Below are positions 642 to 63,457 of a stretch of DNA of 64,000 nucleotides, piece by piece. Within the stretch, counting starts at the first letter, position 1; every line of letters starts with the position of its first letter. Both the position numbers and the translations under genes were made by a program. The stretch is from Candidatus Omnitrophota bacterium (GTDB lineage Bacteria > Omnitrophota > Gorgyraeia > JABMRN01 > RBG-13-46-9), in the NCBI GenBank assembly GCA_016782425.1, contig JADHYN010000006.1, positions 2,190 to 66,189 on the forward strand, read 5' to 3'. The notes beneath the pieces are model-generated. The model made no database searches, was not told the DNA's origin, and saw only the letters and a list, made by a program, of their open reading frames with translations.

Positions 642-1408
642 GTATCCTTTATCTTTTTATCATAGGCGCTATTGTCGGTAGTTTGATGAACGTGTGTATT
701 TATAGACTGCCGAAGGGCCAGTCTATAGTAACGCCGCGTTCTCATTGCCCTTCATGCGGTCACGCGATAGCGTGGTTCGACAATATTCCAATACTCAGTT
801 TTTTGATATTAAAGGGAAGATGTAGATCCTGCAGAAATAAGATTTCCCCAAGATACGTTGTTGTCGAAGTTCTTTCAGGGGTGGTGAGCGTCTTACTTTT
901 CTTGCGTTTTGGATTGACGGCTAAATTTTTTATTTTATGGTATCTTTCGTGCGCCCTCATCGTGGCGTCGTTTATTGATCTTGAAATTCGCGAGATACCC
1001 GATATTATTACGCTACCCGGCATAGTAATCGGGATGTCGCTGGCAGCTTTGCATCCGCCGCTTATGGGTAGTGCCGGAAATCTTTCGTCTTTTGTAAACT
1101 CTTTTCTCGGGGTTATCGTAGGCGGGGGGAGCATTTACATTCTCGGTTTCATAGGTGAATTTATCTTCAAAAAAGAAGCCATGGGAGGAGGGGACGTTAA
1201 GTTGCTTGCGATGATCGGCGGTTTTATCGGTTGGAAACTCATCCTGCTTACCTTTTTTCTTGCGCCATTTTTTGGTTCTATAGTGGGTATTTTTCTCAAA
1301 ATAAAAGAGGGAAGGGCTATCATTCCGTACGGACCGCATCTGTCATTGGCAGCATTTGTAGCTATATTTTACGGAAATGCAATCCTAAAAAAATTATTTT
1401 TATTATAA
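638..1408 (+). CDS. pilD: Prepilin (type IV leader) peptidase, A24 family
   Basis: N-terminal CPSCGH...GRCRSCR zinc-knuckle, multiple TM segments, GGGDVKL aspartyl-protease motif. ATGA overlap with aroE. Confidence 0.85.
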   Translation: MSILYLFIIGAIVGSLMNVCIYRLPKGQSIVTPRSHCPSCGHAIAWFDNIPILSFLILKGRCRSCRNKISPRYVVVEVLSGVVSVLLFLRFGLTAKFFILWYLSCALIVASFIDLEIREIPDIITLPGIVIGMSLAALHPPLMGSAGNLSSFVNSFLGVIVGGGSIYILGFIGEFIFKKEAMGGGDVKLLAMIGGFIGWKLILLTFFLAPFFGSIVGIFLKIKEGRAIIPYGPHLSLAAFVAIFYGNAILKKLFLL

Positions 1409-1413
1409 ATAAA

Positions 1414-1445
1414 GACACAACTTATGGAGGCCGAAAGCCGACATA
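1414..1445 (+). repeat. Post-stop element, copy 1 (GACACAACTTATGGAGGC-CGAAA-GCCGACATA)
   Basis: It shares an 18-nt identical core plus GCCGACATA with 35789..35832. It starts 5 nt after the pilD stop. Confidence 0.7.
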
Positions 1446-1472
1446 CAAAGAAAAAATTCAAAAGACGATGTC

Positions 1473-1493
1473 CTTGACATTTATGATGTCAAG
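1473..1493. promoter_or_regulatory. Palindrome CTTGACAT-N5-ATGTCAAG, 27 nt upstream of the aroC ATG
   Basis: Perfect 8-bp inverted repeat containing TTGACA on both strands. A related palindrome lies at 49616..49640. Confidence 0.5.
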
Positions 1494-1520
1494 AACAGTG
1501 CTCATTGAAGGAGGAGAAAC

Positions 1521-2648
1521 ATGAATATACGATACCTGACCGCGGGCGAGTCGCATGGAAAGGCGCTTATCTCGATTATAGAAGGAATCCCGAAAGGTCT
1601 CAAGCTCGATGTTAAATTTATAAACCAGGAACTTGCCAGGCGGATGAAGGGTTTTGGACGCGGCAAGAGAATGCGGATAGAAAAAGACAAGGTCGAAATT
1701 CTATCCGGCACAAGAAAAGGTAAAACCATAGGAAGCCCCATAGCCCTTGTCATTCAAAACAAGGATTTTAAGATAGAAAAGCTGCCTTCGATCAGCTGCC
1801 CGCGACCCGGACACGCTGATTTGGCCGGCGTCCTTAAGTTTGAAGAAAAAGACATAAGAAACATCCTGGAAAGGGCAAGTGCCCGCGAGACAGCCTCCAG
1901 AGTAGCAACAGGCGCCATTGTCAAGCTTCTGTTAAGAGAGTTCGGCATAGATTTCATGAGCCATTCTGTCATGATAGGAGGCGTCGCCTCGGAAAAAAGT
2001 TTTTCATCCAGCAAAATGAAAAGCCTGGCGGAGAAGTCTCCCGTAAGATGTATCGATAAAGACGCATCGCGGCTTATGTGTAACGAGATAAGAAAAGCAG
2101 CCAAAGACGGCGATACGTTAGGCGGCATCTTTGAGGTTATCATTAAAGGCACCCCACCCGGCCTAGGTAGCTACACGCAATGGGACAGGAGACTTGACGG
2201 CAATCTCGCGAGGGCCGTCATGTCAATTCCGGGTATCAAAGGCGTAGAGATAGGTGCCGGGTTTGGAATGGCGTTTGAACGCGGTTCGACGGTTCATGAT
2301 GAAATCTTTTTCAGCAAGAAAACGAAGAAATTTTCCCACAGGAGCAATAATGCAGGGGGGTTAGAAGGCGGCATCACAAACGGAGAAAACATAATGATAC
2401 GCGCCGTCATGAAACCGATAGCTACGCTTAAGAATCCCCTGGATTCCGTCGACATAAGAACCGGGAAAAAGAAAAAAGCGCAGGTGGAAAGGGCCGATGT
2501 ATGCGTCGTGCCCTCTTGCGGCGTTATCTCCGAAGGCGTCTCTGCCATAGAGGTAGCACACGCCATGAACGAGAAATTCGGCGGCGATTCTCTCAGTGAA
2601 ATGAAGCGTAATTACGAGGGATACATTAAACAAGTGGGAAAAATATAA
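1521..2648 (+). CDS. aroC: Chorismate synthase
   Basis: MNIRYLTAGESHGKALISIIEGIPKG N-terminus and full-length family similarity. GAAGGAGGA RBS upstream. Confidence 0.95.
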   Translation: MNIRYLTAGESHGKALISIIEGIPKGLKLDVKFINQELARRMKGFGRGKRMRIEKDKVEILSGTRKGKTIGSPIALVIQNKDFKIEKLPSISCPRPGHADLAGVLKFEEKDIRNILERASARETASRVATGAIVKLLLREFGIDFMSHSVMIGGVASEKSFSSSKMKSLAEKSPVRCIDKDASRLMCNEIRKAAKDGDTLGGIFEVIIKGTPPGLGSYTQWDRRLDGNLARAVMSIPGIKGVEIGAGFGMAFERGSTVHDEIFFSKKTKKFSHRSNNAGGLEGGITNGENIMIRAVMKPIATLKNPLDSVDIRTGKKKKAQVERADVCVVPSCGVISEGVSAIEVAHAMNEKFGGDSLSEMKRNYEGYIKQVGKI

Positions 2649-9261: not shown

Positions 9262-9729
9262 ATGAAAGTCAAAGACGTAATGACAAAAAATGTTGTAAAA
9301 GTCAAGCTCTCGACAGGGATCCGCCAAATTTACAATATCTTCTGCGAGAAACACATAGGCGGAGTACCCGTTGTAGACGGCGAAGACAGACTCATTGGCA
9401 TGGTCACGAAAACAGAACTTTTGGATGTTTTGATTCCTGATTACTTCGGCATGTTAAGCGACTTCCTTTTTATAGACGACTTCGGAGCCCTGGAGGAAAA
9501 ACTCGAATCCATACCCCCGCTTGAACTTTTTATAGCGGAGGATCTCATGATAAGAAACGCCATCTCGATAAATGAAGACGCCTCACTTATGAAAGCACCG
9601 GTTCTCATGAGCAATCATAATGTAAGAAGGTTGCCTGTCGTGACGAAAGATAATAAGCTTATAGGTATTATCACGCGAATGGACGTCTGCAACGCGCTTT
9701 TCAACGGAAGGAGGGCTCCGCACTTATGA
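9262..9729 (+). CDS. CBS-domain pair protein
   Basis: Two CBS repeats (VMTKNVVKV..., MIRNAISINED...RRLPVV). ATGA overlap with the downstream permease. Confidence 0.8.
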   Translation: MKVKDVMTKNVVKVKLSTGIRQIYNIFCEKHIGGVPVVDGEDRLIGMVTKTELLDVLIPDYFGMLSDFLFIDDFGALEEKLESIPPLELFIAEDLMIRNAISINEDASLMKAPVLMSNHNVRRLPVVTKDNKLIGIITRMDVCNALFNGRRAPHL

Positions 9730-11000
9730 TATTTGCACATGTTCTCGCCCTGGCCATATTTCTTGCTACATTTTATTTTATTATTTCCGGTAAGCTCGAC
9801 AGAACAATAGCGAGTTTCGCAGGTGCTATCGTCATGGTTACCGCGGGAATAAGCCTCGGGTTTTACTCTCAGGAAGAGGCTTTTCACGCGATAGACTTCA
9901 ACATGATGGGGCTTTTGGTCGGAATGATGGTCATCGTAAGCGTTTGCAAAAAGACGGGCTTTTTTTCTTACGTGGCGATAAAAGCGGCAAAGGCCTCCAG
10001 GGGATCACCCCTTCGGCTCATGGTCATGATGGGTTGCATCACGGCTTTTCTTTCGATGGCCCTTGATAATGTTACGACCATAATTCTGGTTATCCCCATA
10101 ACTATTCTTATCTGCGACATTCTCGGTATAAGCCCGCTCCCCTTTATAATAACAGAAATTGTATTGTCTAACGTAGGCGGCGTTGGCACGATGGTGGGAG
10201 ATCCGCCCAACATGATGATAGCCTCCAGCGCGAATCTTTCCTTCAACGATTTCCTCATACATCTCTTACCGATTGTTCTGGTTACCATGGTTCTCAGCCT
10301 GGTTGTATTAGCCGTGGTTTTCAGAAAAGAAATCATAAAAAAGCCCAAAGACTTCCGGCCCATACTGGAGATCGATGAAAAAGCCGCCATACGCGACAAG
10401 AAAAGCCTAAAAAAGGTAGCCCTCTCTCTTTTTATAGTTTTTGTCTTATTTTTGCTACAGAAAAGATTGGGTTTAAGCCATTCTTTTATAGCGTTCATAG
10501 GCGCGGGCATAGTTATGGTCCTTGTAAGGCCGAATGTCGAGGAAGTGCTGAAAAACATAGAATGGCCCATATTCGTTTTCTTCGCATCTTTATTCATTAT
10601 CGTAGGTGGGCTTGAACAAACGGGGTTTTTAAATATGGTAGCCGATAGGATCGTTGCCATAGCCACGACAAATTACGGACTGGCAAAACTTTCCATCTTG
10701 TGGTCATCGGCGTTTTTTGCATCAGTCGTAGATCGCATTCCCTTTACCACGGCCATGATACCCATAATAAAACATGTTGGCGAACTCGGCGTTAATGTGG
10801 ATTCCTTGTGGTGGATTCTTGCTTTGGGAGTCGGATTCGGCGGTAACGGTACGCCAATAGGATCTATTGTAGGGGTGGTCGGATTGGCAATGAGCGAGAA
10901 GACCCGCGCTCCCATAGACTTCAAAACGTGGTTTAAGACGGCAACAGTTGTCATGCTGGTTACTATAATTTTTGTTAGCTTTTTGATCGCAATCATATAA
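9726..11000 (+). CDS. ArsB/NhaD (CitMHS/SLC13-like) superfamily permease
   Basis: About 11 TM segments. GDPPNMMIAS and GGNGTPIGS hairpin-loop motifs typical of this ion-transporter superfamily. Confidence 0.7.
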   Translation: MIFAHVLALAIFLATFYFIISGKLDRTIASFAGAIVMVTAGISLGFYSQEEAFHAIDFNMMGLLVGMMVIVSVCKKTGFFSYVAIKAAKASRGSPLRLMVMMGCITAFLSMALDNVTTIILVIPITILICDILGISPLPFIITEIVLSNVGGVGTMVGDPPNMMIASSANLSFNDFLIHLLPIVLVTMVLSLVVLAVVFRKEIIKKPKDFRPILEIDEKAAIRDKKSLKKVALSLFIVFVLFLLQKRLGLSHSFIAFIGAGIVMVLVRPNVEEVLKNIEWPIFVFFASLFIIVGGLEQTGFLNMVADRIVAIATTNYGLAKLSILWSSAFFASVVDRIPFTTAMIPIIKHVGELGVNVDSLWWILALGVGFGGNGTPIGSIVGVVGLAMSEKTRAPIDFKTWFKTATVVMLVTIIFVSFLIAII

Positions 11001-13965: not shown

Positions 13966-16056
13966 ATGAATATATTGCAAATAATTTCTAAATTGGATTC
14001 AAGTGATCCGGCGCAGGACGCTATATCCTCAACGAGGGCTTTTACTCTTAAGGGGCACAAGGTTATCGTAGTTTCACCGAAGAGCCCCCTTGTAAAGGAG
14101 ATAGATGAAGTCGGCGCCAGGTACCGCGCAATATCCATCACCAGCAATATTTTTCTAATTCCCATGGCCATTTTCAGGTTATCGCAGATTATTTCAAAAG
14201 AAAACATACAGATCGTGCATGCGCGGGACGGTATATCCTCTTTTGTAGCATTTTTTGCCTCGAGGCTTACAGATACGATTTTAGTCACCACGGCATACCG
14301 GCATTCCGTAAAAAGTCTTTTTGACAGATCGCAGTTTTGGGCGAAGCGCGTAATCTGTTTTAGCGAAAGCGAAGCGCGACGTCTTACAAAAAACAATCTC
14401 GTTCCGCACAACAAGCTGCGCGTCGTCGAACCTTTTATCGACGGCGATAAAATCGCCTGTTTGCGGTTGGACAATCCTCGCGGTTATTTTGTCATAGGAG
14501 CGGTAATACCGTTATTTTCGCATGAATCGGTCCAGAATTTCATAAGAACCGTTTCGATTCTGTCAAGAACAATTCATAAGATAAAGGTTTTTGTTGCCGA
14601 CAGTTCATTCATGCACGGAAAGGACCACGTAGAAAAATTAAAACTTCTCATTCGAAGGCATTCGCTCAGCGATGTTGTCACATTTTTATCCGACCCAGAG
14701 GACATGAAATTGATGTTCGGAGTGGATTTATCAGTACAGATTAATGTAGACGAAAACATATCCGCAAGGCCTTTGTTGCAGGCCCAGGCGTGCGGCATAC
14801 CGGTTGTCGCAACCCGCGCTGACTGGGTAAAAGATTATTTAGAGGATAATAGAACAGCTATAACCTGCCAGGCAGGCAATCCGAGAGACCTGGCAACGAC
14901 AATACTCGATTTATACAGAGACGAAAAACGCCGGGAAGAGATAAAGAACGCGGCAAAGGACTTTGTAAAAGAAAAGTTTAACATAAAAAAAGTAACACAG
15001 TCCACGTTAAATCTTTATGAAGACACCCTATCGAGCATGAACATACTGATTATAAAAATAGGGGCGCTCGGAGATGTGATACTGGCGACCCCGTCAATCA
15101 GGGCCGTAAGAGAAAAATTCCCAAAATCGAAGATAAAACTTCTCATAGATCTGGACAACAGGGAAGTTTTCATGAATTCCCCCTTTGTAGATGAGATGAT
15201 AGTGTGCGATTTTCGCCAAAGAGACAAGGCACTCGGCGGGCTTTTGCGCGTTGCCCGGAAACTGCGCGCCGAGGGATTCGACACCGTCATCGATTTGCAG
15301 AACAACAAAAAGAGCCATCTCTTGTCATTCCTCTCGTCTGCACCCAAAAGGTACGGCTACGATAACGGGAAATTGAGTTTTTTATTGAATCGAAAAATCA
15401 AGGATGCAAACATTCCGATGGACCCGGTGGAGCATCAGTCGAAAGTGCTGGGTTTATTAGGAATATACGAGATCGACAAAAGCCTGGAACTCTGGCCCAC
15501 AAAAGAAGACGAGGCATGGGCGAGGAATTTTCTTGAGTCTCACTGGGTCAAGGGCAATACAAAACTTGTAGCCTTCAATATCGGTTCCAGCCCGAGATGG
15601 ATTACCAAATTATGGCCGGTTGAAAACTTTGTGGAAATCTGTAACAGACTTGGCAAGGATTTTGGTATCCGCGTTATATTAATCGGGCGCGATAAAAGCG
15701 AACCGCGTATAGATGATTTCTTAAGAGACGCCAAATCGAAGCCCATTAAGTCGCTGGGCAAGACAAACATACCACGGCTGGCTTCCCTTATCAAAAGATG
15801 CGACCTTTTGTTAAGTTCCGATAGCGCCCCCATACACGTGGCAGCCAGTGTAAAAACGCCTTTTATTGCCCTTTTCGGACCGACAGATCCCCGAAGGCAC
15901 GTTGCGCCTGTGAATAAATACGTTATTATCAAAAAGGATTTTCCGTGTATACCGTGTTACCGCACCCATTGTGACAGGGGATATGTATGCATGCGTTCTA
16001 TAAAGCCGGACGAAGTATATAATAAAATAATAGAGATGCTTAAAGTCTCCGCCTGA
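13966..16056 (+). CDS. Fusion protein: GT4 (GT-B) glycosyltransferase plus GT9 heptosyltransferase-like domain
   Basis: I chose ATG 13966 because ORF-track start 13885 overlaps the upstream gene. The second half begins with an in-frame Met at 15037 (MNILIIKIGALGDVILATPSIRAVREKFP) and contains SDSAPIHVAA and FGPTDP GT9 motifs. Confidence 0.8.
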   Translation: MNILQIISKLDSSDPAQDAISSTRAFTLKGHKVIVVSPKSPLVKEIDEVGARYRAISITSNIFLIPMAIFRLSQIISKENIQIVHARDGISSFVAFFASRLTDTILVTTAYRHSVKSLFDRSQFWAKRVICFSESEARRLTKNNLVPHNKLRVVEPFIDGDKIACLRLDNPRGYFVIGAVIPLFSHESVQNFIRTVSILSRTIHKIKVFVADSSFMHGKDHVEKLKLLIRRHSLSDVVTFLSDPEDMKLMFGVDLSVQINVDENISARPLLQAQACGIPVVATRADWVKDYLEDNRTAITCQAGNPRDLATTILDLYRDEKRREEIKNAAKDFVKEKFNIKKVTQSTLNLYEDTLSSMNILIIKIGALGDVILATPSIRAVREKFPKSKIKLLIDLDNREVFMNSPFVDEMIVCDFRQRDKALGGLLRVARKLRAEGFDTVIDLQNNKKSHLLSFLSSAPKRYGYDNGKLSFLLNRKIKDANIPMDPVEHQSKVLGLLGIYEIDKSLELWPTKEDEAWARNFLESHWVKGNTKLVAFNIGSSPRWITKLWPVENFVEICNRLGKDFGIRVILIGRDKSEPRIDDFLRDAKSKPIKSLGKTNIPRLASLIKRCDLLLSSDSAPIHVAASVKTPFIALFGPTDPRRHVAPVNKYVIIKKDFPCIPCYRTHCDRGYVCMRSIKPDEVYNKIIEMLKVSA

Positions 16057-16077
16057 GGCGGAGACTTTTGGTATTTT
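16044..16077 (+). terminator. Intrinsic-terminator-like hairpin AGTCTCCGCC-TGA-GGCGGAGACT followed by TTTGGTATTTT
   Basis: Perfect 10-bp stem whose 3-nt loop is the stop codon (16054..16056), followed by a T-rich tract. Same CTCCGCC-N3-GGCGGAG motif as 47833..47864. Confidence 0.6.
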
Positions 16078-16088
16078 ATATTTCATAT

Positions 16089-17192
16089 ATGAGAATATTA
16101 ATACTAACAACACATCTCGACATAGGCGGGGTTTCGAGTTATACCATTAACCTGGCAAAGGGGTTAAAGAAAAAGGGTTTTTCCGTCTACGTAGCCTCAA
16201 GTGGGGGAGAACTTGTAAAAACGCTGGAAGAAAACGGCATTCCGCACATCTTTCTCAATATAAAGACAAAATTCGAATTTCATCCAAAAGTCTTTTTTGC
16301 ACTTTTTAAATTACTGATGTTTATAAACGAAAACAAGATCGACCTTGTTCATGCGCAGACAAGGGTAACACAGGTTGCGGCATATTTGCTTTCCAGACTT
16401 AGCAAAGTCGCCTACGTGAGCACCTGCCACGGGTTTTTCAAAAACACCAGAATCGGCAGAAAGATATTTGGTTCCTGGGGCGACTATGTAATCGCAATAA
16501 GCGATGCGGTAAAAGACCACCTTGTAAAGGATCTCAACGTAAAAAAAGACAAAGTCTTTCTTATATACAACGGCGTGGATACGAGGGCATTTTCCGGTCG
16601 CGTTGGCGATGAAGAAAAAAATATTTTACGGCACAGTCTCGGATTTGAAAAATCTCCCATCATCGGTTCCGTCTCCAGGCTTTCACCGGTCAAGGGTCTC
16701 AGGCATCTTTTCTTCGCAATGAAAGATATATTGAGGGAAATACCGGAAGCACGGCTTCTTTTGGTCGGAGAAGGGCCGTCAAAGGAATACCTGATGGAAC
16801 TTGCCAAAAATTTAGACATTGAAAATAGCGTGTTTTTCGCGCTGAGTACCACCAACACCCAAAGGTTTTTATCAATTATCGACGTATTCGTGTTTTATTC
16901 TTTGGAGGAGGGATTGGGCCTTTCACTTCTGGAGGCCTTGGCGTCCGGAAAACCCTGCGTTGCTTCCTCTATAGGCGGCGTTTCATCCATTATCGAAGAC
17001 GGCGTAACGGGAATTCTCGTTCCCCCAAAGGATACCCACGCGCTTAAAGAAGCCGTAATAAAAATCCTGAAGGATAAAAAACTCAGCCATTCCCTGGCTG
17101 AAAAAGGAAGACGCCTCGTGAAGAATAAGTTCTCTTTAGATCAAATGCTTGAAAGGGTTGTAGAAGTGTATGAGAGGGCAAGCCGGAAATAA
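16089..17192 (+). CDS. Glycosyltransferase family 4 (GT-B)
   Basis: MRILILTTHLDIGGVSSY N-terminus and EGLGLSLLEALASGKPCVAS motif. ATG 16089 is preferred to the TTG at 16068. Confidence 0.85.
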   Translation: MRILILTTHLDIGGVSSYTINLAKGLKKKGFSVYVASSGGELVKTLEENGIPHIFLNIKTKFEFHPKVFFALFKLLMFINENKIDLVHAQTRVTQVAAYLLSRLSKVAYVSTCHGFFKNTRIGRKIFGSWGDYVIAISDAVKDHLVKDLNVKKDKVFLIYNGVDTRAFSGRVGDEEKNILRHSLGFEKSPIIGSVSRLSPVKGLRHLFFAMKDILREIPEARLLLVGEGPSKEYLMELAKNLDIENSVFFALSTTNTQRFLSIIDVFVFYSLEEGLGLSLLEALASGKPCVASSIGGVSSIIEDGVTGILVPPKDTHALKEAVIKILKDKKLSHSLAEKGRRLVKNKFSLDQMLERVVEVYERASRK

Positions 17193-17994: not shown

Positions 17995-19032
17995 ATGATA
18001 AAAGAATACAAGCGTATACTGATAGTAGAGGTTAACTGGCTCGGCGACGTTCTCTTTTCCACGCCATTCATTCGTGCCGTCCGCGAAAAATTTAAAAATG
18101 CCCACATTACCTGCATGATTGCGCCTCGCACAAAAGAAATATTGGAGCACAATCCCCGCATAGACGAATTGATAATTTACGACGAGAAAGGCACGCATAA
18201 AAGTTTATTGGGGAAGTGGCGCCTTGTGTCACAGTTACGGAAAAAAGAATTTGATCTTGCCGTTCTTTTGCACAGGTCATTCACAAGAGCCTTTATGACG
18301 TACCTCGCCGGCATTAAAGAACGCGCCGGCTATAGAACGAAAAAAAGGGGTAGTCTCCTTACACATCCTGTCGAGGCACCTTGGGAACCCTTGCACAAGG
18401 TAGAGTATTTCTTAAAGATCGCCAAGTCTCTCGGGTGTAATATTTCCAATAAAGATTACGAATTTTTCATAACTGGTAACGAAAGGGAATACATCGAGAA
18501 AGAATTATCCAAAACCGCTGTCGAAAAAGAGGATTTTTTGGTTGTTATAAATCCGGGCGGCAACTGGGCTCCGAAAAGATGGGACGAAGAAAATTTCGCC
18601 AGTATAAGCGACATTCTAATATCGAAATATAAAGTGAAGGTGGTTGCCTCCGGCGCGGAAAAAGACATAGAAAGAACCACGCGGATAAAAAAAAGAATGA
18701 AAGAGAATCTCATAACGTTCGCCGGCAAGACAAACTTAAAACAACTCGGCGCTCTTCTGGAAAGGGCAAATGTTGTTATCTCGAGCGATTCCGGTCCGAT
18801 GCACATAGCCGTTACAATGAAATCCAACGTTATAGCATTATTCGGGCCCACTTCACCGCGCCTTACAGGACCGTATGGCAACGGCAGTTACAGGGTAATA
18901 CAAAAGAACGTAGAATGCGAAATTCCGTGCTACGATCTGGCATGCGACAATTATAGATGCATGAAGGCGATAACAGTTGATGACGTTCTGGAAGTTTTCG
19001 ATCACCTATATTCTTCGGTAAAACAGGAATAA
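17995..19032 (+). CDS. Glycosyltransferase family 9 (heptosyltransferase-like)
   Basis: RILIVEVNWLGDVLFSTPFIRAVR, NPGGNWAPKRW, SSDSGPMHIA and FGPTSP motifs. Confidence 0.85.
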   Translation: MIKEYKRILIVEVNWLGDVLFSTPFIRAVREKFKNAHITCMIAPRTKEILEHNPRIDELIIYDEKGTHKSLLGKWRLVSQLRKKEFDLAVLLHRSFTRAFMTYLAGIKERAGYRTKKRGSLLTHPVEAPWEPLHKVEYFLKIAKSLGCNISNKDYEFFITGNEREYIEKELSKTAVEKEDFLVVINPGGNWAPKRWDEENFASISDILISKYKVKVVASGAEKDIERTTRIKKRMKENLITFAGKTNLKQLGALLERANVVISSDSGPMHIAVTMKSNVIALFGPTSPRLTGPYGNGSYRVIQKNVECEIPCYDLACDNYRCMKAITVDDVLEVFDHLYSSVKQE

Positions 19033-19036
19033 TCTT

Positions 19037-21127
19037 GTGGCAAAGATCGATAAGATAAGGGTAAAACGCATCCTGGTGATTACACTCAGCAATATAGGCG
19101 ATGTTATCCTTACCACCCCTGTCGTGGAAACCTTGCTCAAGGAATTTCCGGCTTCCCGGTTGGATGTCATGGTGGGGCCCAACGGGAAAGAAATTTTTGA
19201 AGCTCACGAGAAAATCAGGGACACGATAATATACGACAAAAAGGCCTCGGCACTTACTAAATCCAGGCTTTTTATCGCATTGTGGAAGAAAAGATACGAC
19301 CTTGTAGTGGATTTGCGCAATACAATTCTGCCGCTTGTCCTCGGCGCAAGATTCATCACGAATCCCCTCAGGCATAAGAGTAAAGGCAGGATGCACAAAA
19401 AAGACGTTCACCTCTGGCGCTTGCAGGAAATAGGTATTGATACATCGGAGGGTTCATTTTACATCCCTATCAAAGATGATGACAGGAAATATATAGAGAA
19501 TATTCTGGAAGGGTTTAAAGGAAAACCCTTTGTCGTAGTAAGCCCGGGCGCAAAAAGCCACCTGAAAAGGTGGCCCCTTAAGAATTTCGCCAAACTCTCT
19601 GATCTGCTGAAACAGGACCTCGGATATGAAGTAGTGCTGGTGGGCGACGAAAACGACAAAATCGTAATAGAAAGAACTTTATTCTACATGAAGACAAGCC
19701 CGGTTAATCTTATCGAGAAGACTAACATACGAGAGCTTGCACATTTAATAAAGAAAAGCAAATTACTCATAACAAACGACAGCGCACCTCTACACGTCGG
19801 TAGTGCGGTGGGCGCTTCTATGCTTTCATTTTTCGGACCCACTGACTATAAAAAATACGGCCCGGTTACGAAAGCCGAAAACAGGGTCTTGCGTAAAGAT
19901 ATAGAATGCTCACCGTGCGAGGTCCCGCAGTGCATAAAAACACTGAATAAATACGAGTGCCTTAAGACGATTTCTGTCGAGGAGGCGTTCCTGGCGGCAA
20001 AGGAGCTTATATCTGAACCGTTTGCAATTTCCAATTCAACCTGTCCCCATCGTAATGATAACACCTATGGGGACAGGTTGAACGGGGAATCGCAAACGGT
20101 TCATAAACGCATCCTCCTCACGCGAACGGATAGAATCGGCGACGTGGTTCTCTCAACCCCTGCCATTAAAGCCATGAGGGATAAATATCCAGACGCCCAC
20201 ATTGCATTCATGGTAAGGCCATACGCGAATGACATTGTAGAGGGTAATCCGTATCTGGACGAGGTAATAATCTACGATAAATACGGAAAGCACAAGAGCC
20301 TCTTCGGCACGATTCTCTTCGCGCTGGGGCTACGAAAGAAAAAATTCGACATGGCCATAATACTGCATCCGACTAACCGCGTGCATCTGATTTCGTATCT
20401 TGCAGGCATTCCGGAAAGAATCGGATATGATAGGAAGCTTGCGTTTTTCCTGACAAAAAAAATTCCGCATTCCAAGCAGGAAGGTAAAAAGCACGAGTTA
20501 GAATACACGCTCGATCTCTTAAAATCAATAGGAATCAAGGCAAAGGATAAAGAACTTTTTGTCCCCGTACAAGAGAGGAATATAGAGACGATCGAAAAAC
20601 TGCTTGACGAACATCACATAGGCAAGGATATACCCCTCATCGCGGTAAACCCCGGAGCAAGCTGCCCGTCCAAAAGATGGCCTCCCAAAAAGTTCGCCGT
20701 TATTTGTGATAATCTGGCAAGCAGATACAAAGCCAGGATATTGATAGTGGCCGACGAAGCAAATACCGAATTCGCAAGCGCCGTAGCAAAGGCTATGAAA
20801 TACGAACCCGTAAACCTTGCCGGTAGGACTAGCGTTGGTGAATTGGCAGCCCTTCTTTCAAAATGCAGACTTTTTATATCAAACGATTCCGGACCTGTCC
20901 ACATTGCATGCGCCGTCGATATACCCACGATCTCCATCTTCGGAAGAAAAGACCCGGGCCTTTCGCCGAAACGGTGGAGGCCAACCGGCCAGAAAAGCAC
21001 GGTTTTCCACAAAGATGTTGGCTGCAACCCTTGCCTTGCCCATAACTGTAAGATCGGCTTTAAGTGTCTCGAAGCAATTACCCCATCAGAGGTCTTCGAA
21101 AAAGCCGAGAGGCTTCTTCTTGATTGA
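19037..21127 (+). CDS. Tandem double GT9 (heptosyltransferase-like) fusion protein, GTG start
   Basis: Two complete GT9 units: ILVITLSNIGDVILTTP...NDSAPLHV...FGPTD, and ILLTRTDRIGDVVLSTP...NDSGPVHIA...FGRKDP. They are joined by a linker encoded by the palindrome at 20015..20102. Confidence 0.8.
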   Translation: MAKIDKIRVKRILVITLSNIGDVILTTPVVETLLKEFPASRLDVMVGPNGKEIFEAHEKIRDTIIYDKKASALTKSRLFIALWKKRYDLVVDLRNTILPLVLGARFITNPLRHKSKGRMHKKDVHLWRLQEIGIDTSEGSFYIPIKDDDRKYIENILEGFKGKPFVVVSPGAKSHLKRWPLKNFAKLSDLLKQDLGYEVVLVGDENDKIVIERTLFYMKTSPVNLIEKTNIRELAHLIKKSKLLITNDSAPLHVGSAVGASMLSFFGPTDYKKYGPVTKAENRVLRKDIECSPCEVPQCIKTLNKYECLKTISVEEAFLAAKELISEPFAISNSTCPHRNDNTYGDRLNGESQTVHKRILLTRTDRIGDVVLSTPAIKAMRDKYPDAHIAFMVRPYANDIVEGNPYLDEVIIYDKYGKHKSLFGTILFALGLRKKKFDMAIILHPTNRVHLISYLAGIPERIGYDRKLAFFLTKKIPHSKQEGKKHELEYTLDLLKSIGIKAKDKELFVPVQERNIETIEKLLDEHHIGKDIPLIAVNPGASCPSKRWPPKKFAVICDNLASRYKARILIVADEANTEFASAVAKAMKYEPVNLAGRTSVGELAALLSKCRLFISNDSGPVHIACAVDIPTISIFGRKDPGLSPKRWRPTGQKSTVFHKDVGCNPCLAHNCKIGFKCLEAITPSEVFEKAERLLLD
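20015..20102. repeat. 88-nt intragenic extended palindrome encoding the GT9-GT9 linker
   Basis: Outer arms GAACCGTTTGC / GCAAACGGTTC (11 bp, perfect). Inner arms TTCAACCTGTCCCCA / TGGGGACAGGTTGAA (15 bp, perfect). 18-nt loop. No stop codon in the gene's frame. Confidence 0.85.
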
Positions 21128-21153
21128 CAATATCACAATATATATGATAGAAT
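21124..21153 (+). promoter_or_regulatory. Sigma70-like promoter candidate TTGACA-18 nt-(TGa)TAGAAT
   Basis: Consensus -35 overlapping the upstream stop codon, and an extended -10. Only 9 nt separate the -10 from the ATG at 21163, with no SD, so the mRNA would be leaderless or nearly so. Confidence 0.5.
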
Positions 21154-47111: not shown

Positions 47112-48863
47112 ATGAAGTGGACAGAAACCTTAATACCTACACTTCGGGAAGATCCCCAGGACGCCGAAGCTGTAAGCCACAAGCTTATGGTGAGGGCGGC
47201 CCTCATAAGAAAACTTACCGCCGGAGCCTATTCTTATTTACCCCTTGGCTTTAGAATTTTGAAAAAAGTCGAAAATATTATAAGAGAGGAGATGAACATT
47301 GCCGGCGCGATAGAACTTCTTTTACCTGCTATTCAACCCGTTGAGCTTTGGAAGAAAACCGGAAGATACGACATTTTAGGAGATGTTCTTATAAAGTATA
47401 AAGACAGACACGGTAAGCTTGTGGCTCTCGGGCCGACGCACGAGGAGATAATAACAGACCTTGTTGCGAAAGAAATAAACTCTTATAAAAGCCTGCCCAA
47501 GACTTTATATCAGATTCAGACGAAATTCAGGGATGAAATAAGGCCGCGTTTCGGCGTAATAAGAAGTTCCGAATTCATCATGAAGGACGCCTACAGTTTT
47601 GACGTGGACGAAAAGAGCCTGGAAAAAAGCTACAAGAAGATGTACGACGCTTATTGCAGAATTTTCAAAAGGTGCGCTATTCCATATATTGCCGTCGAAG
47701 CAGACCCCGGTATCATGGGAGGAAATATCTCCCATGAATTCATGGTGCCTTCGGAGATAGGAGGAGATGAAATAGTAATTTGCAAAAAGTGCGACTATTC
47801 TGCAAGTACCCACGTTGCGGCATGCAAAAATCTCCGCCAAAGGCGGATCCGCCTCGGGCGGAGAAAATCCCTGCCTGAGCGCCGAAGCCTTGGCGAAGGC
47901 GGGAAAATTGATAAGATTAAAGAGGTTGATACGCCCAACACAACGAGCGTCGAAGGAGTAAGCAAGCTCTTAAGGGTAAAGCCTTCCCAGCTCATAAAAA
48001 CGTTGATTTATCTTGCAGATGGAAAACCCGTCGCTCTTCTTGTAAGGGGAGATTATGAAGCCAATGAGGTAAAGTTTAAAAATCACCTAAAAGCCGATAC
48101 ATTGGTGATGGCTGATGATAAGATCATACAGGATGTAACAGGTGCCCCCATGGGGTTTTCCGGGCCGGTCGGCTTAAAAATAAAGATGTTTGCCGATTTC
48201 AGTATTGAAGCCATACAGAATGCGGTTACGGGCGCGAATAAAAAGGATAAACACCTTGTAAATGTTAACATCGACAGGGATTTTAAACCGAATGCCTGGC
48301 TTGACGCAAGGGTTATTAAACCAGAAGATCGGTGCCCGCATTGCGGCGGAAAAATAGAAATAAAACACGCAATAGAAATTGGCCATACATTCAAACTGGG
48401 AACCAAATATTCAAAGGCACTAGGTGCGAATTTCTTGGATAAGGATGGCAAATCTCACGCCGCCATAATGGGTTGTTACGGTATAGGCGTAAACAGAATT
48501 TTAGCATCGAGTATCGAAGTAAATAATGACAAAGACGGGATTATCTGGCCAAAATCCATAAGCCCGTACGAGATCGTGGTCCTCCCCTTAAATACGAAAA
48601 ACGAAAATTTGCAAAAGTTCAGCGAGAAACTATACAAAGATATGTGCAAGGCAGACATGGATGTGATCATCGATGACCGCCGAGAACGTGCAGGCGTCAA
48701 ATTCAAAGACGCCGACCTGATAGGCTTCCCAATTCAGGTGATTATAGGCGAAAAGAACCTCGAAAAAGGTAAGGTAGAGATTAAGACACGGAAAAACAAA
48801 AAGTCCGAACTCATTGATAGTAAAGGTATTATGAATAGATTAAAAACCCTTGACAAGATATAA
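47112..48863 (+). CDS. proS: Prolyl-tRNA synthetase (bacterial type with INS editing domain)
   Basis: Class II motifs (FRDEIRPRFGVIRSSEFIMKDAYSF, GCYGIGVNR) and the anticodon-binding C-terminus. Confidence 0.9.
   Translation: MKWTETLIPTLREDPQDAEAVSHKLMVRAALIRKLTAGAYSYLPLGFRILKKVENIIREEMNIAGAIELLLPAIQPVELWKKTGRYDILGDVLIKYKDRHGKLVALGPTHEEIITDLVAKEINSYKSLPKTLYQIQTKFRDEIRPRFGVIRSSEFIMKDAYSFDVDEKSLEKSYKKMYDAYCRIFKRCAIPYIAVEADPGIMGGNISHEFMVPSEIGGDEIVICKKCDYSASTHVAACKNLRQRRIRLGRRKSLPERRSLGEGGKIDKIKEVDTPNTTSVEGVSKLLRVKPSQLIKTLIYLADGKPVALLVRGDYEANEVKFKNHLKADTLVMADDKIIQDVTGAPMGFSGPVGLKIKMFADFSIEAIQNAVTGANKKDKHLVNVNIDRDFKPNAWLDARVIKPEDRCPHCGGKIEIKHAIEIGHTFKLGTKYSKALGANFLDKDGKSHAAIMGCYGIGVNRILASSIEVNNDKDGIIWPKSISPYEIVVLPLNTKNENLQKFSEKLYKDMCKADMDVIIDDRRERAGVKFKDADLIGFPIQVIIGEKNLEKGKVEIKTRKNKKSELIDSKGIMNRLKTLDKI
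47833..47864. repeat. Intragenic tandem hairpin CTCCGCC-AAA-GGCGGA|TCCGCC-TCG-GGCGGAG inside proS
   Basis: Two adjacent TCCGCC-N3-GGCGGA units. The central GGCGGATCCGCC is itself a perfect palindrome. Same motif as the terminator hairpin at 16044. Confidence 0.75.
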
Positions 48864-49064: not shown

Positions 49065-49523
49065 ATGGAAGAAGTAATAGAACGAGTAAACCAAGTTATC
49101 GAGCCTATAGCGAATGAACGCAAATACTATGTTGTGGATGTTACGTATAGGCGCGAAGGTGGAAAGCTCCTGTTAAGAATCATACTGGATAAAGAAGGTG
49201 GCATAGCGATAGATGAGTGCAGCAGGCTGAATAATGAGCTTGGTGAACTTTTAGACAAGGAAAACCTGATCGAGGAACCATATACGCTGGAGGTATCATC
49301 CCCTGGCCTGGACAGAGGGCTCAAGACGGATAGAGATTTTGCGTGGGCCGCAGGCAAAAAGGTAAAGATAAGCACGTATGCACCCCTTGATGGAAAGAAT
49401 GTATTTAGAGGGACCCTTTTGGGCTTGGGAGACGGCACTATCGTTGTAGAAGAAAACGGTATCTCAACGGAAATTCCAAGGGATAAAATATCAAAGGCTA
49501 GATTAAATGAGGCCATGATTTAG
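49065..49523 (+). CDS. rimP: Ribosome maturation factor RimP
   Basis: About 150 aa with the EVSSPGLDRGL motif. rimP-nusA-infB synteny. Confidence 0.85.
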   Translation: MEEVIERVNQVIEPIANERKYYVVDVTYRREGGKLLLRIILDKEGGIAIDECSRLNNELGELLDKENLIEEPYTLEVSSPGLDRGLKTDRDFAWAAGKKVKISTYAPLDGKNVFRGTLLGLGDGTIVVEENGISTEIPRDKISKARLNEAMI

Positions 49524-49553
49524 GAAAATTTTTTTAAAATTTTCCTAAATCAT
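49515..49553. repeat. Hairpin ATGATTTAGGAAAA(TTTT)-TTT-(AAAA)TTTTCCTAAATCAT containing the rimP stop codon
   Basis: A 14-bp perfect stem plus 4 A-T pairs. The TAG at 49521..49523 sits in the 5' arm. Confidence 0.75.
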
Positions 49554-49615
49554 AAAGCCGAATTTATCCCGAAGGCACGAAGTACCTTAAGGGATCTCAT
49601 ATTGGGATTGCTTCG

Positions 49616-60120: not shown

Positions 60121-60728
60121 TATATTTTATTTCCAGGATTCTTTTTAAGATCCTTTTAAAAACTGTTTTTAGATTTGAAATTAACGGCAGCGGAAATATA
60201 CCCAAAAAGGGTCCTTTTATAATGGTATCGAACCATGTGAGCTATGCCGACCCTGTCGTCATGGGCGTGGCGTGCAACACGGTTCCTATCAACTTTATGG
60301 CAAAAAGGGAGCTCTTTGACATACCTATTTTTAACCTGTGGTTCAAAGCTGTCGGCTGCATACCCATTGAACGCAATTCGGCTAGCTCCGCAGCTTTAAA
60401 AAAAGCGGTACAAAAATTGAAGCAAGGAATGGCTCTCGGAATATTTCCGGAAGGGCGCCGCTCCCCGGACGGAAAACTCCGGAAAGCGGAACCCGGAGTC
60501 GGATTGATTGTCGCGAAAACAGGGGTACCCATAATCCCTCTTTATATTTCAGGAACAGAGAAGGCGTTACCGATAGGCAAGAAAACCTTAATGCCGTGCA
60601 AGATTACAGCGAAGATCGGAAAAACAGTCGATATAAGCCAGAGTATGAAGCTCCTTGAGAAAAGAAAGATTTATGAATCCATAGGCGAGAAAATAATAGG
60701 CGCCATTTCGAGACTAAAAGATGAATGA
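60117..60728 (+). CDS. plsC: 1-acyl-sn-glycerol-3-phosphate acyltransferase
   Basis: NHVSYADP (HX4D) and FPEGRRS motifs. Confidence 0.85.
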   Translation: MIYFISRILFKILLKTVFRFEINGSGNIPKKGPFIMVSNHVSYADPVVMGVACNTVPINFMAKRELFDIPIFNLWFKAVGCIPIERNSASSAALKKAVQKLKQGMALGIFPEGRRSPDGKLRKAEPGVGLIVAKTGVPIIPLYISGTEKALPIGKKTLMPCKITAKIGKTVDISQSMKLLEKRKIYESIGEKIIGAISRLKDE

Positions 60729-60730
60729 AG

Positions 60731-60766
60731 CCATAACCTATACCTGCAGGCAGGTATAGGTTATGG
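60731..60766. repeat. 17-bp perfect hairpin CCATAACCTATACCTGC-AG-GCAGGTATAGGTTATGG, 2 nt after the plsC stop
   Basis: Perfect inverted repeat. The centre CCTGCAGGCAGG resembles the 53011 palindrome. No T-tract follows. Confidence 0.75.
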
Positions 60767-60776
60767 GGCTGAATTC

Positions 60777-63409: not shown

Positions 63410-63416
63410 AATGCAC

Positions 63417-63447
63417 GCCCCGTTAGATGTGACACATCTAACGGGGC
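63417..63447. repeat. CCCCGTTAGA-family hairpin GCCCCGTTAGATGTG-A-CACATCTAACGGGGC
   Basis: 15-nt perfectly complementary arms. Confidence 0.8.
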
Positions 63448-63457
63448 ACGAAGGATA

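Follow-up and report, generated by a model that had tools for sequence, protein, structure and literature searches.

Palindromic repeats that are translated in frame as part of a protein are best known from Rickettsia. These Rickettsia palindromic elements (RPE), reportedly described by Ogata et al. in 2000, are small palindromic families whose copies lie both between genes and in frame inside unrelated protein-coding genes, where they add a segment of peptide at positions compatible with the fold and are retained at orthologous sites in related species. The repeat family that we present here comes from a different phylum, the Omnitrophota, and shares all of these traits: it is a multi-copy palindromic repeat, with in-frame copies in unrelated open reading frames. 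It differs from the RPE in its length (75–90 nt, against about 100–150 bp) and in its placement, most copies being intercistronic and set precisely against the stop codon of the upstream gene, with 3 of 16 loci in frame. The family behaves like the RPE but is not filed as one of them: RPE families are known only from Rickettsia, the host here belongs to the Omnitrophota, and Rfam gave sub-threshold matches to generic hairpin models.

A second set of close relatives is formed by the REP, BIME and REPIN sequences of Enterobacteria and Pseudomonas, imperfect palindromes in the transcribed spacers between co-directional operon genes, which make stable stem-loops beside stop codons and show covariation between their two arms. 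The REP between malE and malF is said to have been the subject of work by Newbury et al. in 1987, and Liang, Rudd and Deutscher reportedly found in 2015 that REPs close to stop codons affect translation. The Omnitrophota family has the same features, and one of its copies even lies between a solute-binding-protein gene and a permease gene, as at malE-malF. Thirteen of its copies are extragenic, between co-directional genes, but REPs are extragenic by definition and this family is sometimes translated, the three intragenic loci departing from that definition. A REP is moreover a palindrome of 20–40 nt with a GTAG-like 5′ tetranucleotide, whereas the Omnitrophota copies run to 75–77 nt, have the termini TGAACC or TGTACC and lack any GTAG-type 5′ motif; the element is about twice as long, with a stem in two tiers and a conserved internal loop.

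[quoted passage not shown] With these the Omnitrophota family has in common its terminal inverted repeats, which here make up the whole element, its presence or absence at orthologous sites, its folding as RNA and its occasional in-frame fusions with host reading frames. The differences are that the Omnitrophota element is one whole hairpin rather than a core between two terminal inverted repeats, and that neither a target-site duplication nor a parent insertion sequence was identified for it.

Here we describe a copy of this family inside a gene for a tandem GT9 glycosyltransferase, in a 64,000-nucleotide stretch of an Omnitrophota contig, hereafter the window. We regard it as probable that the palindrome at 20014–20103 is a copy of a small palindromic repeat, translated as part of the protein and inherited at orthologous positions, and that it entered a gene that was already fused. 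The family is new, resembling both RPE and REP, and is a new example of a known phenomenon.

Results and discussion

The host gene encodes a 696-aa protein in which two complete GT9 units had been recognised from the letters alone, and profile searches bear this out: PF01075 matches in two stretches (244.5 bits, cut-off 22), TIGR02195 matches the second half (270.9 bits, cut-off 134.6) and an RfaQ-type model matches the first (Table 1), scores that place the protein in GT9. An Omnitrophota MAG protein (P0001) matches it at 100% identity, and both the two-unit architecture of the host protein and the LPS-core neighbourhood of its gene, which reads lpxK, GT4, deacetylase, GT9, the tandem gene (GT9x2), hldE-like and kdsB, are those of an ordinary Omnitrophota tandem GT9. 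In AlphaFold2 models, the pLDDT of unit 1 is mostly above 85, with a final helix at residues 314–325, and that of unit 2 is above 88 across most of the unit; residues 328–354, between the two, fall below 50 and carry no secondary structure. The linker is thus predicted to be a disordered spacer that separates two GT9 units, each of which folds on its own. Because none of the start codons ATG, GTG and TTG occurs in frame between the element and the conserved N-terminus of unit 2, separate translation of the second GT9 half is unlikely.

Table 1. Coordinates of the host gene, the palindrome and the comparison sites in the window
Feature	Position	Strand	Basis or remark
Tandem (fused) GT9 heptosyltransferase-like protein, 696 aa	19037..21127	+	ORF list; Pfam PF01075 twice; TIGR02195
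GT9 unit 1, residues 1–326	19037..20014	+	RfaQ-type model, residues 8–282; AlphaFold2
GT9 unit 2, residues 357–696, starts HKRILLTRTDRIGD	20105..21124	+	TIGR02195, residues 359–694; AlphaFold2
Separate single-unit GT9 gene, 345 aa, directly upstream of the tandem gene	17995..19032	+	ORF list; profile matches
90-nt imperfect palindrome TGAACC...GGTTCA	20014..20103	+	Encodes linker residues 327–356, in frame
Outer stem, 5′ arm (TGAACCGTTTGC.AATTTC)	20014..20032	+	RNA fold
Inner stem, 5′ arm (TTCAACCTGTCCCCAT)	20035..20050	+	RNA fold
Enlarged loop	20051..20066	+	Family comparison
Inner stem, 3′ arm (ATGGGGACAGGTTGAA)	20067..20082	+	RNA fold; family alignment
Outer stem, 3′ arm (GGGAAT.GCAAACGGTTCA)	20085..20103	+	RNA fold; family alignment
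3′ end of the tandem gene with conserved promoter-like TTGACA-18-TAGAAT	21110..21153	+	Four-species alignment; promoter scan; empty site
Spacer between peptidase-A24 gene and aroC, without family copy	1396..1522	+	Comparison with bin17; covariance model

The linker had been described as the product of a nested inverted repeat, and direct reading of the sequence agrees. The outer arms, GAACCGTTTGC at 20015–20025 and GCAAACGGTTC at 20092–20102, pair in 11 of 11 positions, the inner arms, TTCAACCTGTCCCCA at 20035–20049 and TGGGGACAGGTTGAA at 20068–20082, pair in 15 of 15, and an 18-nt loop lies between the 15-nt arms. A repeat search extends the arms to 20014–20050 and 20067–20103 (37 nt, 89% complementary, 16 nt apart), which makes this the longest inverted repeat of the window. 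The linker is encoded wholly by the palindrome: codon 327 is the in-frame GAA at 20015, and the peptide EPFAISNSTCPHRNDNTYGDRLNGESQTVH falls exactly between the two units. As RNA, the palindrome has a minimum free energy of −56.5 kcal/mol, against −21.4 ± 3.1 for 200 shuffled sequences, none of which folds as well (z = −11.2). An intrinsic terminator was considered and rejected, the hairpin being followed by TAAACGCATCC with no run of T and a terminator scan giving no site at 20014–20110. A known RNA family was rejected as well, since the overlapping matches in Rfam 15 are generic hairpin models of miRNA precursors and STnc400, all below their gathering scores. From inspection by eye, we infer that no slippery heptamer that might signal a frameshift precedes 20014.

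In the sequence-only reading, the palindrome was likened to the intergenic hairpins said to fill the window's spacers. The kinship with intergenic hairpins stands in related genomes, where copies occupy operon spacers, but not in the window itself: no further copy of either arm occurs there, and a covariance model of the family run over the window returns one match, the linker copy (87 bits), the next best scoring 19 bits. In the genome collection, an exact-pattern scan found eight copies in CP070780.1 (bin17) and seven in JAUWBJ01 (CSMAG_1317), and the covariance model added three, for at least 18 copies in the sampled DNA of these two related genomes and 16 independent loci in all sampled DNA; the counts are small, the family being carried by three genomes, of which 8–22-kb loci were sampled. 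The consensus, of about 75 nt (75–77), reads TG[A/T]ACCGTTTGCGATTTcccg-TTCAACCTGTCCCC-GCAAG-GGGGACAGGTTGAA-cgggAAATCGCAAACGGT[T/A]CA, and all copies fold at −52 to −71 kcal/mol. The linker copies depart from it in their loop, 20 nt separating the CCCC and GGGG runs against 5–6 nt in ordinary copies.

The ordinary copies sit in the spacers of dapA-dapB (in both genomes), leuC-leuD, pgk-tpi, oppA-oppB, galT-gap and pepA24-aroC, among others, and their geometry is precise: the TGA of the element is the stop codon of the upstream gene in six copies at five loci, and for 10 of the 13 intercistronic copies the ATG of the next gene lies 10–19 nt beyond the element. The three in-frame loci are the GT9x2 linker, a BioH-BioC linker and an OppD/F ATPase, the last showing 14 extra aa, net, when compared with 8j5q_D. 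Outside these genomes, the inner-stem pattern matched four contigs in a metagenome scan, all representing one locus with a different palindrome around the same 14-nt stem; the viral, plasmid and phage collections gave no match, and a concatenated 85-aa query of the translated element gave no candidates among public proteins. The family belongs to a narrow Omnitrophota clade.

Whether the element had made the fusion was one of two readings proposed from the letters, the other being an in-frame insertion like those of Rickettsia. If the hairpin had once separated two GT9 genes, read-through of it would have produced the fusion, and there is some ground for such a view, for ordinary copies of the family sit exactly between adjacent genes and the element is open in one frame, so that a change of frame could in principle join its neighbours. 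Against it, more than 100 Omnitrophota homologues at 45–50% identity are tandem GT9 proteins, all fused already, with short and unrelated linkers in place of the element. The best 120 of 1102 homologue matches are all fused (556–1070 aa, the 556-aa one being shortened by the end of its contig) and nearly all lack the linker of the window protein, their linkers differing in both length and sequence. The clade yielded no split GT9 pair. A parallel is offered by BioH-BioC, where fusion by the element was rejected in its turn, fused homologues without it existing (P0122 and P0123). The comparison with orthologues thus turned up fusions lacking the element, the two-unit architecture is ancestral, and these homologues show the GT9–GT9 fusion to be older than the element; fusion by read-through is very improbable. 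In-frame insertion is instead borne out by the multi-copy family, by the two further in-frame copies and by the differences in presence and absence between genomes.

The copy in the linker is orthologous in three species (the window and loci L001 and L018), with the loop enlarged in each; among Omnitrophota tandem GT9 proteins, this palindrome in the linker is confined to the window, bin17 and CSMAG_1317 lineages. In the tree, the proteins of bin17 and CSMAG form a group with a further homologue, P0004, at 100% bootstrap, and the window protein falls outside this group. P0004, although nested, has no element, and its reading frame is intact as far as its contig reaches; by tree parsimony alone, the absence is most simply a loss. 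A remnant of the element in the short P0004 linker was sought and rejected, as the alignment score was no better than that of 36% of shuffles. In a sister lineage (P0003), a different structured repeat occupies the same position of the linker, also in frame. That long GT9x2 linkers in Omnitrophota are generally encoded by palindromes was rejected, the linkers of P0022 and P0112 not being so; among the long linkers checked, P0003 was the one other with a structured repeat.

Differences between genomes are seen at other sites too. At the 3′ end of the tandem gene, bin17 carries a second, ordinary 75-nt copy, from which the gene takes its final 18 codons and its stop, and the same site is empty in the window, CSMAG and P0003; in this one clear comparison, the filled site also has 32 extra AT-rich nucleotides. 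The two filled operon spacers of bin17 that allow comparison flank aroC, and the window has no copy in either; the one towards the peptidase-A24 gene contains in bin17 a complete copy together with two partial arms. Many of the copies are followed by a loose RAACGATACA motif, and the 40-nt flanks of 16 copies gave no consistent direct repeat. Because no such target-site duplication was found and no associated transposase was seen in the sampled 8–22-kb loci, it is solely these between-genome differences that suggest mobility of the family.

The nucleotides of the linker copy have changed in a manner quite unlike those of the surrounding gene. Between the window and bin17, third codon positions are 82.8% identical in the element and 43.5% identical in the rest of the gene, and over the three codon positions identity is 86/83/83% in the element against 76/87/44% elsewhere. 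Where the amino acid is the same, the codon is also the same in 20 of 21 cases within the element, against 220 of 482 outside it (Fisher p = 3.7e-6), and the element ranks second among 686 sliding windows in nucleotide identity. The stems change in pairs: six of 32 pairs across the family are compensatory (columns 6/93, 14/85, 15/84, 17/82, 21/78 and 22/77, in the outer stem), and in the linker copies themselves GC..GC in the window corresponds to GA..TC in bin17 and CSMAG. With synonymous sites nearly fixed and changes in the stems compensated, what is constrained, on the evidence of these alignments, is the hairpin, as DNA or as RNA, together with the invariant sequence of its inner stem, and not the peptide. 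In the stems, U·G mismatches are about as many as A·C, which gives no strand signal and leaves action as RNA inseparable from action as DNA.

A palindrome rather than a conserved peptide had been the expectation set beforehand, and it was upheld, the peptide being confined to three close relatives in which the nucleotides, synonymous sites included, are conserved. A peptide under selection, with palindromic coding as an incident, would fit the conservation of the linker peptide, which at 72% identity between the window and bin17 equals that of the remainder of the protein. Yet substitutions fall evenly over the codon positions of the element, the peptide is predicted to be disordered and the same nucleotide element is present in non-coding spacers. 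A palindrome created by faulty assembly is opposed by the presence of the orthologous copy in three independent assemblies, among them a closed chromosome of 1.43 Mb. We consider a selected peptide or an assembly artefact to be extremely unlikely.

The pattern within the stem bears on a possible role at the level of DNA, in which the inner stem GGGGACAGGTTGAA would be a site of binding or cleavage for a nucleoid protein or for a transposase of the HUH/RAYT type, recognition of which would keep the linker copy in place. In the alignment of 16 sequences, 13 of 14 core pairs of the inner stem never vary, the remaining pair (33/66) having three one-sided changes, and the outer stem covaries; this suggests a constraint that is sequence-specific in the inner stem and structural alone in the outer one. 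Nearly every copy leaves an asymmetric internal loop unpaired, and at two loci in L006 the full copies have partial arms beside them, an arrangement like that of clustered or nested insertions. Such a site is nonetheless doubtful, given that the family has neither a conserved GTAG-type 5′ motif nor a target-site duplication and that one copy alters the inner stem in a compensatory way (TGTACCC/GGGTACA).

Alternatively, the host may have adopted the hairpin in the mRNA, either to pause the ribosome after unit 1 while it folds co-translationally or as a determinant of RNase processing or stability that would set the level of message on its 5′ and 3′ sides. The compensatory changes in the stem would suit such a role, as would the near-invariance of synonymous sites across lineages that are saturated elsewhere in the gene and the very stable fold of all three orthologues, at −55 to −58 kcal/mol. 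Read on the sense strand, the loop is GNRA-like (GCAAG, GTAAG or GTGAAG) at 13 of the 15 ordinary loci (binomial p = 0.007), even where the internal loop is flipped, although this bias is confounded with the direction of replication. However, the GNRA-type loop is gone from the linker copies, the second half has no start codon, so that unit 2 could not be translated on its own after cleavage, and the nested P0004 lineage does without the element, its frame intact up to the end of the contig. We hold adoption in the mRNA to be a tentative possibility. It overlaps in part with the reading of the linker copy as an inherited insertion.

A more ambitious and rather improbable proposal makes the whole family a module that the host uses at the boundaries of cistrons and domains: a sequence-specific, GNRA-capped hairpin that would offer a TGA stop in one frame and a disordered linker in another and keep stop and start adjacent, so that a change of frame by one nucleotide would switch between coupled and fused genes. 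Recognition by a trans-acting factor would then account for the frozen synonymous sites in the GT9 gene.

To return to an inherited, translated insertion, which we prefer, the tree is most simply explained by one insertion into the existing interdomain linker, in the one frame free of stops, in the common ancestor of the window organism and the bin17, CSMAG_1317 and P0004 lineages. The loop would then have been enlarged by 15 nt, and the P0004 lineage would later have lost the element. That these 30 codons serve as a disordered spacer would explain why the insertion was tolerated. The family itself may act in cis, much as REP elements do, by forming a very stable stem-loop; folding would bring the stop codon and the downstream start close together in space, so that translational coupling could survive the insertion, and the hairpin could also be a barrier to 3′ exonucleases or a site of ribosome pausing. 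Because one lineage lost the element, the linker copy is probably not needed for GT9 function. Most likely it is a tolerated relic that keeps the cis property of the family; the frozen synonymous sites are unlike those of a purely neutral relic and point to function or to gene conversion.

Conclusions

The phenomenon of palindromic repeats translated in frame now extends to the Omnitrophota, a poorly known and largely uncultured phylum. A single linker that holds two unrelated structured repeats in sister lineages, and has been cleared in a third, is a natural experiment on how linkers absorb selfish DNA, and conservation of nucleotides past the point of synonymous saturation makes a constraint on the nucleic acid directly measurable within a coding region. 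In the intercistronic copies, the geometry is very regular, the hairpin having the stop codon within its 5′ base and the start 10–19 nt past its 3′ base, and suggests a way in which hairpins could enter tightly coupled operons without breaking translational coupling. For annotation, linkers and C-terminal tails of this kind are derived from repeats and are not evidence of recent gene fusion.

Results

A palindrome translated between two GT9 units

The tandem GT9 gene (GT9x2) carries a palindrome whose arm pairs and 18-nt loop are, on direct reading, just as the sequence-only reading had described them, and an inverted-repeat search lengthened the arms to 37 nt at 89% complementarity, the longest inverted repeat of the 64-kb window. 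Its RNA fold has an energy of -56.5 kcal/mol (z = -11.2 against shuffles). As that reading also held, the linker is encoded by the palindrome, which supplies residues 327-356 in frame, exactly between the two GT9 units. In an AlphaFold2 model based on an alignment of 30 homologues, both units folded confidently, and residues 328-354 fell below pLDDT 50 without secondary structure. No start codon belonging to unit 2 was seen in the sequence; the gene is therefore expected to yield one polypeptide, and separate translation of the second half is unlikely.

An Omnitrophota MAG encodes a protein identical to that of the window. Among 1102 homologues, the 120 best without exception have the tandem GT9 architecture, most with lengths of 665-724 aa and identities of 45-50%; in their alignment the GT9 units are conserved, the linker differs in length and sequence, and a window-like linker peptide is confined to the closest relatives. 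Fusion of two genes by the element, the first origin that had been proposed for it, is therefore rejected, and by this alignment the GT9-GT9 fusion evidently predates the palindrome.

Two further features of these genes are recorded here. In P0112, a distant homologue, unit 1 rather than the linker has a lineage-specific insertion that contains a small GC-rich inverted repeat. A strong sigma-70-like promoter match (TTGACA, 18-nt spacer, TAGAAT, TG upstream) overlaps the GT9x2 stop codon and keeps its TTGACAAT core in all four species compared, so that the downstream hldE-like kinase gene may have its own promoter at this predicted site.

Features and their coordinates (L-numbers are sampled loci)
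Feature	Location	Strand	Description
GT9x2 ORF	window 19037-21127	+	696 aa, two GT9 units
Outer arms	window 20015-20025, 20092-20102		GAACCGTTTGC with GCAAACGGTTC
Inner arms	window 20035-20049, 20068-20082		TTCAACCTGTCCCCA with TGGGGACAGGTTGAA
Lengthened arms	window 20014-20050, 20067-20103
Enlarged loop	window 20050-20067; L001 11013-11032		bin17 sequence ATCGCAGCGATGGTACCTGT
Promoter match	window 21124-21153
Other window hairpins	63413-63451, 60726-60773, 49512-49556, 47830-47865, 16036-16074		example GCACGCCCCGTTAGATGTGACACATCTAACGGGGCACG
AT-rich palindrome	window 49515-49553		perfect, 18/18
aroC-side copies, bin17	L006 5900-6045, 4690-4790	-	full copies flanked by partial arms
Tail examples	L011 6534-6544; L013 1898-1908; L009 6955-6966		right flanks
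Longer palindrome family	L008 2946-3041; L020-L023, e.g. L020 955-1042		GGGGTCAGGTTAMTTT-TTCAACCTGTCCCC-loop-GGGGACAGGTTGAA-AAAKTAACCTGACCCC
OppD/F copy	L016 2277-2352	-	inside first ABC ATPase domain, between Q-loop region and signature motif
P0003 linker repeat	L002 10973-11091		120 nt; TGTCATYCTGAGG...CCTCRGGATGACA ends; three internal hairpins
P0003 repeat pieces	L002 4085, 9368-9990, 13973-14116, 16807-16937
P0112 inverted repeat	L025 1929-1969		TTGCCGCCTGCCTG / CAGGCAGGAGGAAA
LpxK repeat, bin17	L001 1938-2058		three tandem 36-nt palindromic units

A repeat family in Omnitrophota

The closest relative of the window protein (P0002, 73% identity) comes from CP070780.1 (bin17), a closed Omnitrophota chromosome of 1.43 Mb, whose GT9x2 gene has the palindrome at the same place and, at its 3′ end, a second, shorter copy that makes up its final 18 codons and stop codon. 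An inner-stem pattern scan, run on a single genome for each GTDB species, detected 8 copies in bin17 plus 7 in a further Omnitrophota MAG, JAUWBJ01 (CSMAG_1317), and also matched an unrelated palindrome in a betaproteobacterial MAG; a covariance model (R1), built from 16 aligned copies, added 3 more. No copies were found in plasmid, phage and viral collections. The ordinary copies are 75-77 nt long, with an outer stem TGAACCGTTTGCGAT / ATCGCAAACGGTTCA, an internal loop that remains unpaired, an inner stem of 14 bp and a loop of 5-6 nt. Fold energies of all copies run from -52 to -71 kcal/mol, compensatory changes are seen at 6 of 32 pairs (e.g. TGAACC..GGTTCA vs TGTACC..GGTACA), and 13 of the 14 inner-stem pairs are invariant in the 16-sequence alignment. 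The idea that the linker hairpin is of the kind filling the spacers of the window did not hold: arm searches and R1 found no second family copy there (linker copy 87 bits, next best match 19 bits), and the other window hairpins show no sequence kinship to the family (at most 19 bits with R1).

Many copies are followed, directly before the downstream start codon, by a loose non-palindromic tail (~RAACGATACA); either the element may be asymmetric, at about 86 nt, or it may have inserted beside a preferred leader sequence. The betaproteobacterial palindrome belongs, together with copies on soil metagenome contigs, to a different, longer family that also contains the exact 14-nt inner stem, which may reflect chance, a common recognition motif or transfer.

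Ordinary copies sit between co-directional genes: dapA-dapB (an orthologous site in bin17 and CSMAG_1317), leuC-leuD, pgk-tpi, oppA-oppB, galT-gap, pepA24-aroC, aroC and the next gene, DUF72 and an HhH-GPD gene, rluD-aroA, and a pilin-like gene and a TPR gene. In six copies at five loci the upstream gene ends on the element itself, whose initial TGA serves as its stop codon; at one further locus a TAA directly abuts the element, and the downstream ATG lies 10-19 nt past it in 10 of 13 copies. Around bin17 aroC, partial arms (TGAACCGGATTTGCGAAA and GGAAAATCGCAAACGGTTCA at one locus, TGAACCGA and GAACGGTTCA at the other) stand beside the full copies, and the TGA of one fragment is the aroC stop codon; this looks like nested or repeated insertion.

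Besides the GT9 linker copy, two copies are translated, in a BioH-BioC fusion and in an OppD/F protein. The former shares the reading frame of the window copy, giving EPFAISISTCPRKGDRLNGKSQTV, and because fused homologues without the element exist, it is an insertion into an existing linker. The latter, with a compensatory change in its inner stem and a net gain of 14 residues over M. tuberculosis OppD, lies within an ATPase domain, so in-frame copies are not limited to interdomain linkers. The ordinary 75-nt form is stop-free in only one of three sense frames, which is the frame used for the 3′ half of the element in each of the three translated copies. The bin17 LpxK gene, in the LPS gene cluster of GT9x2, also has a structured repeat within its coding sequence, at its start and in frame as SSSGGGRTSIN x3; the LpxK of the P0003 lineage is ~35 aa shorter.

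History and conservation of the linker copy

The linker copy occupies the same codon in the window, bin17 (L001) and CSMAG (L018), and a 15-nt loop enlargement is common to all three. In a neighbour-joining tree, bin17 and CSMAG grouped at 98% bootstrap with another homologue, P0004, beside them at 100%, and the window protein fell outside this group. The linker of P0004 is short, no significant DNA remnant of the element was found in it, and the simplest history would be that the element inserted once, in the common ancestor, and was later lost from P0004. In the fifth clade member, P0003, the corresponding linker position is taken by a different structured repeat, also read in frame (-69 kcal/mol, z = -6.1). 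Pieces of this repeat turn up again in intergenic spacers of the P0003 genome and to either side of a GIY-YIG gene, a 93-aa ORF that separates the GT9 gene from GT9x2. In two more distant homologues the linker contains no palindrome. At the 3′ end of the gene, where bin17 alone has a copy, the window, CSMAG and P0003 each show a clean empty site. Both spacers flanking aroC hold copies in bin17, whereas those of the window are empty, so copies of the family have been gained or lost since the divergence of these species. A multi-copy family, with translated copies in unrelated genes and with filled and empty sites, supports the other proposed origin, an in-frame insertion like the Rickettsia palindromic elements (RPE).

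The enlarged loop resembles scrambled outer-arm pieces of the family (ATCGCA, GCGAT, GGTAC), and may be what is left of a second copy that entered there and later lost most of its length.

Conservation of the linker as a peptide, which the sequence-only reading had named as the observation that would count against it, was tested between the window and bin17, and the opposite was found, with the nucleotides conserved even at third codon positions. Amino-acid identity is 72% both in the element and in the rest of the gene; nucleotide identity is 83.9% vs 68.8%, identity at codon positions 1/2/3 is 86/83/83% vs 76/87/44%, and identical residues use identical codons in 20/21 vs 220/482 cases (Fisher p = 3.7e-6). 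The element ranks second of 686 sliding windows by nucleotide identity, its differences are concentrated in the enlarged loop, and its stem changes are compensatory. It is thus the nucleic acid, and not the peptide, that is under constraint. The enlarged loop is unique to the linker copies and would not survive conversion of the whole element by ordinary ones, which makes such gene conversion unlikely.

Discussion

The linker copy arose when a member of the repeat family inserted, in frame, into a linker that is disordered and permissive, and it has been retained under nucleotide-level constraint. In behaviour the family is like RPE, from which it is set apart by taxon and not by sequence comparison, and like bacterial MITEs fused in frame (reviewed, together with RPE, in PMC10969869), although no target-site duplication was seen at its copies. 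Its intercistronic copies resemble REP elements, but its size and 5′ motif fall outside those that define REPs. The element has no Rfam match above threshold, and a full-text literature search returned nothing relevant on palindromic repeats in Omnitrophota; the family is new, and the kind of phenomenon, RPE-like and in-frame MITE-like, is already known.

An intrinsic terminator was rejected for the element by sequence reading and a terminator scan. The loss of the element from P0004, as placed by the tree, argues that the hairpin is not essential for the GT9x2 gene. A GNRA-like loop on the sense strand at 13 of 15 ordinary loci (p = 0.007), a bias confounded with replication direction, hints at strand-specific action; stem mismatches gave no strand signal. 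We infer that the family acts in cis as a stable hairpin. The cases of the malE-malF REP and of REPs near stop codons suggest, by analogy, that such a hairpin could also serve as an exonuclease barrier or a pause site. The regular placement between stop and start codon suggests that folding would hold these two codons close, so that operon coupling would survive the insertion.
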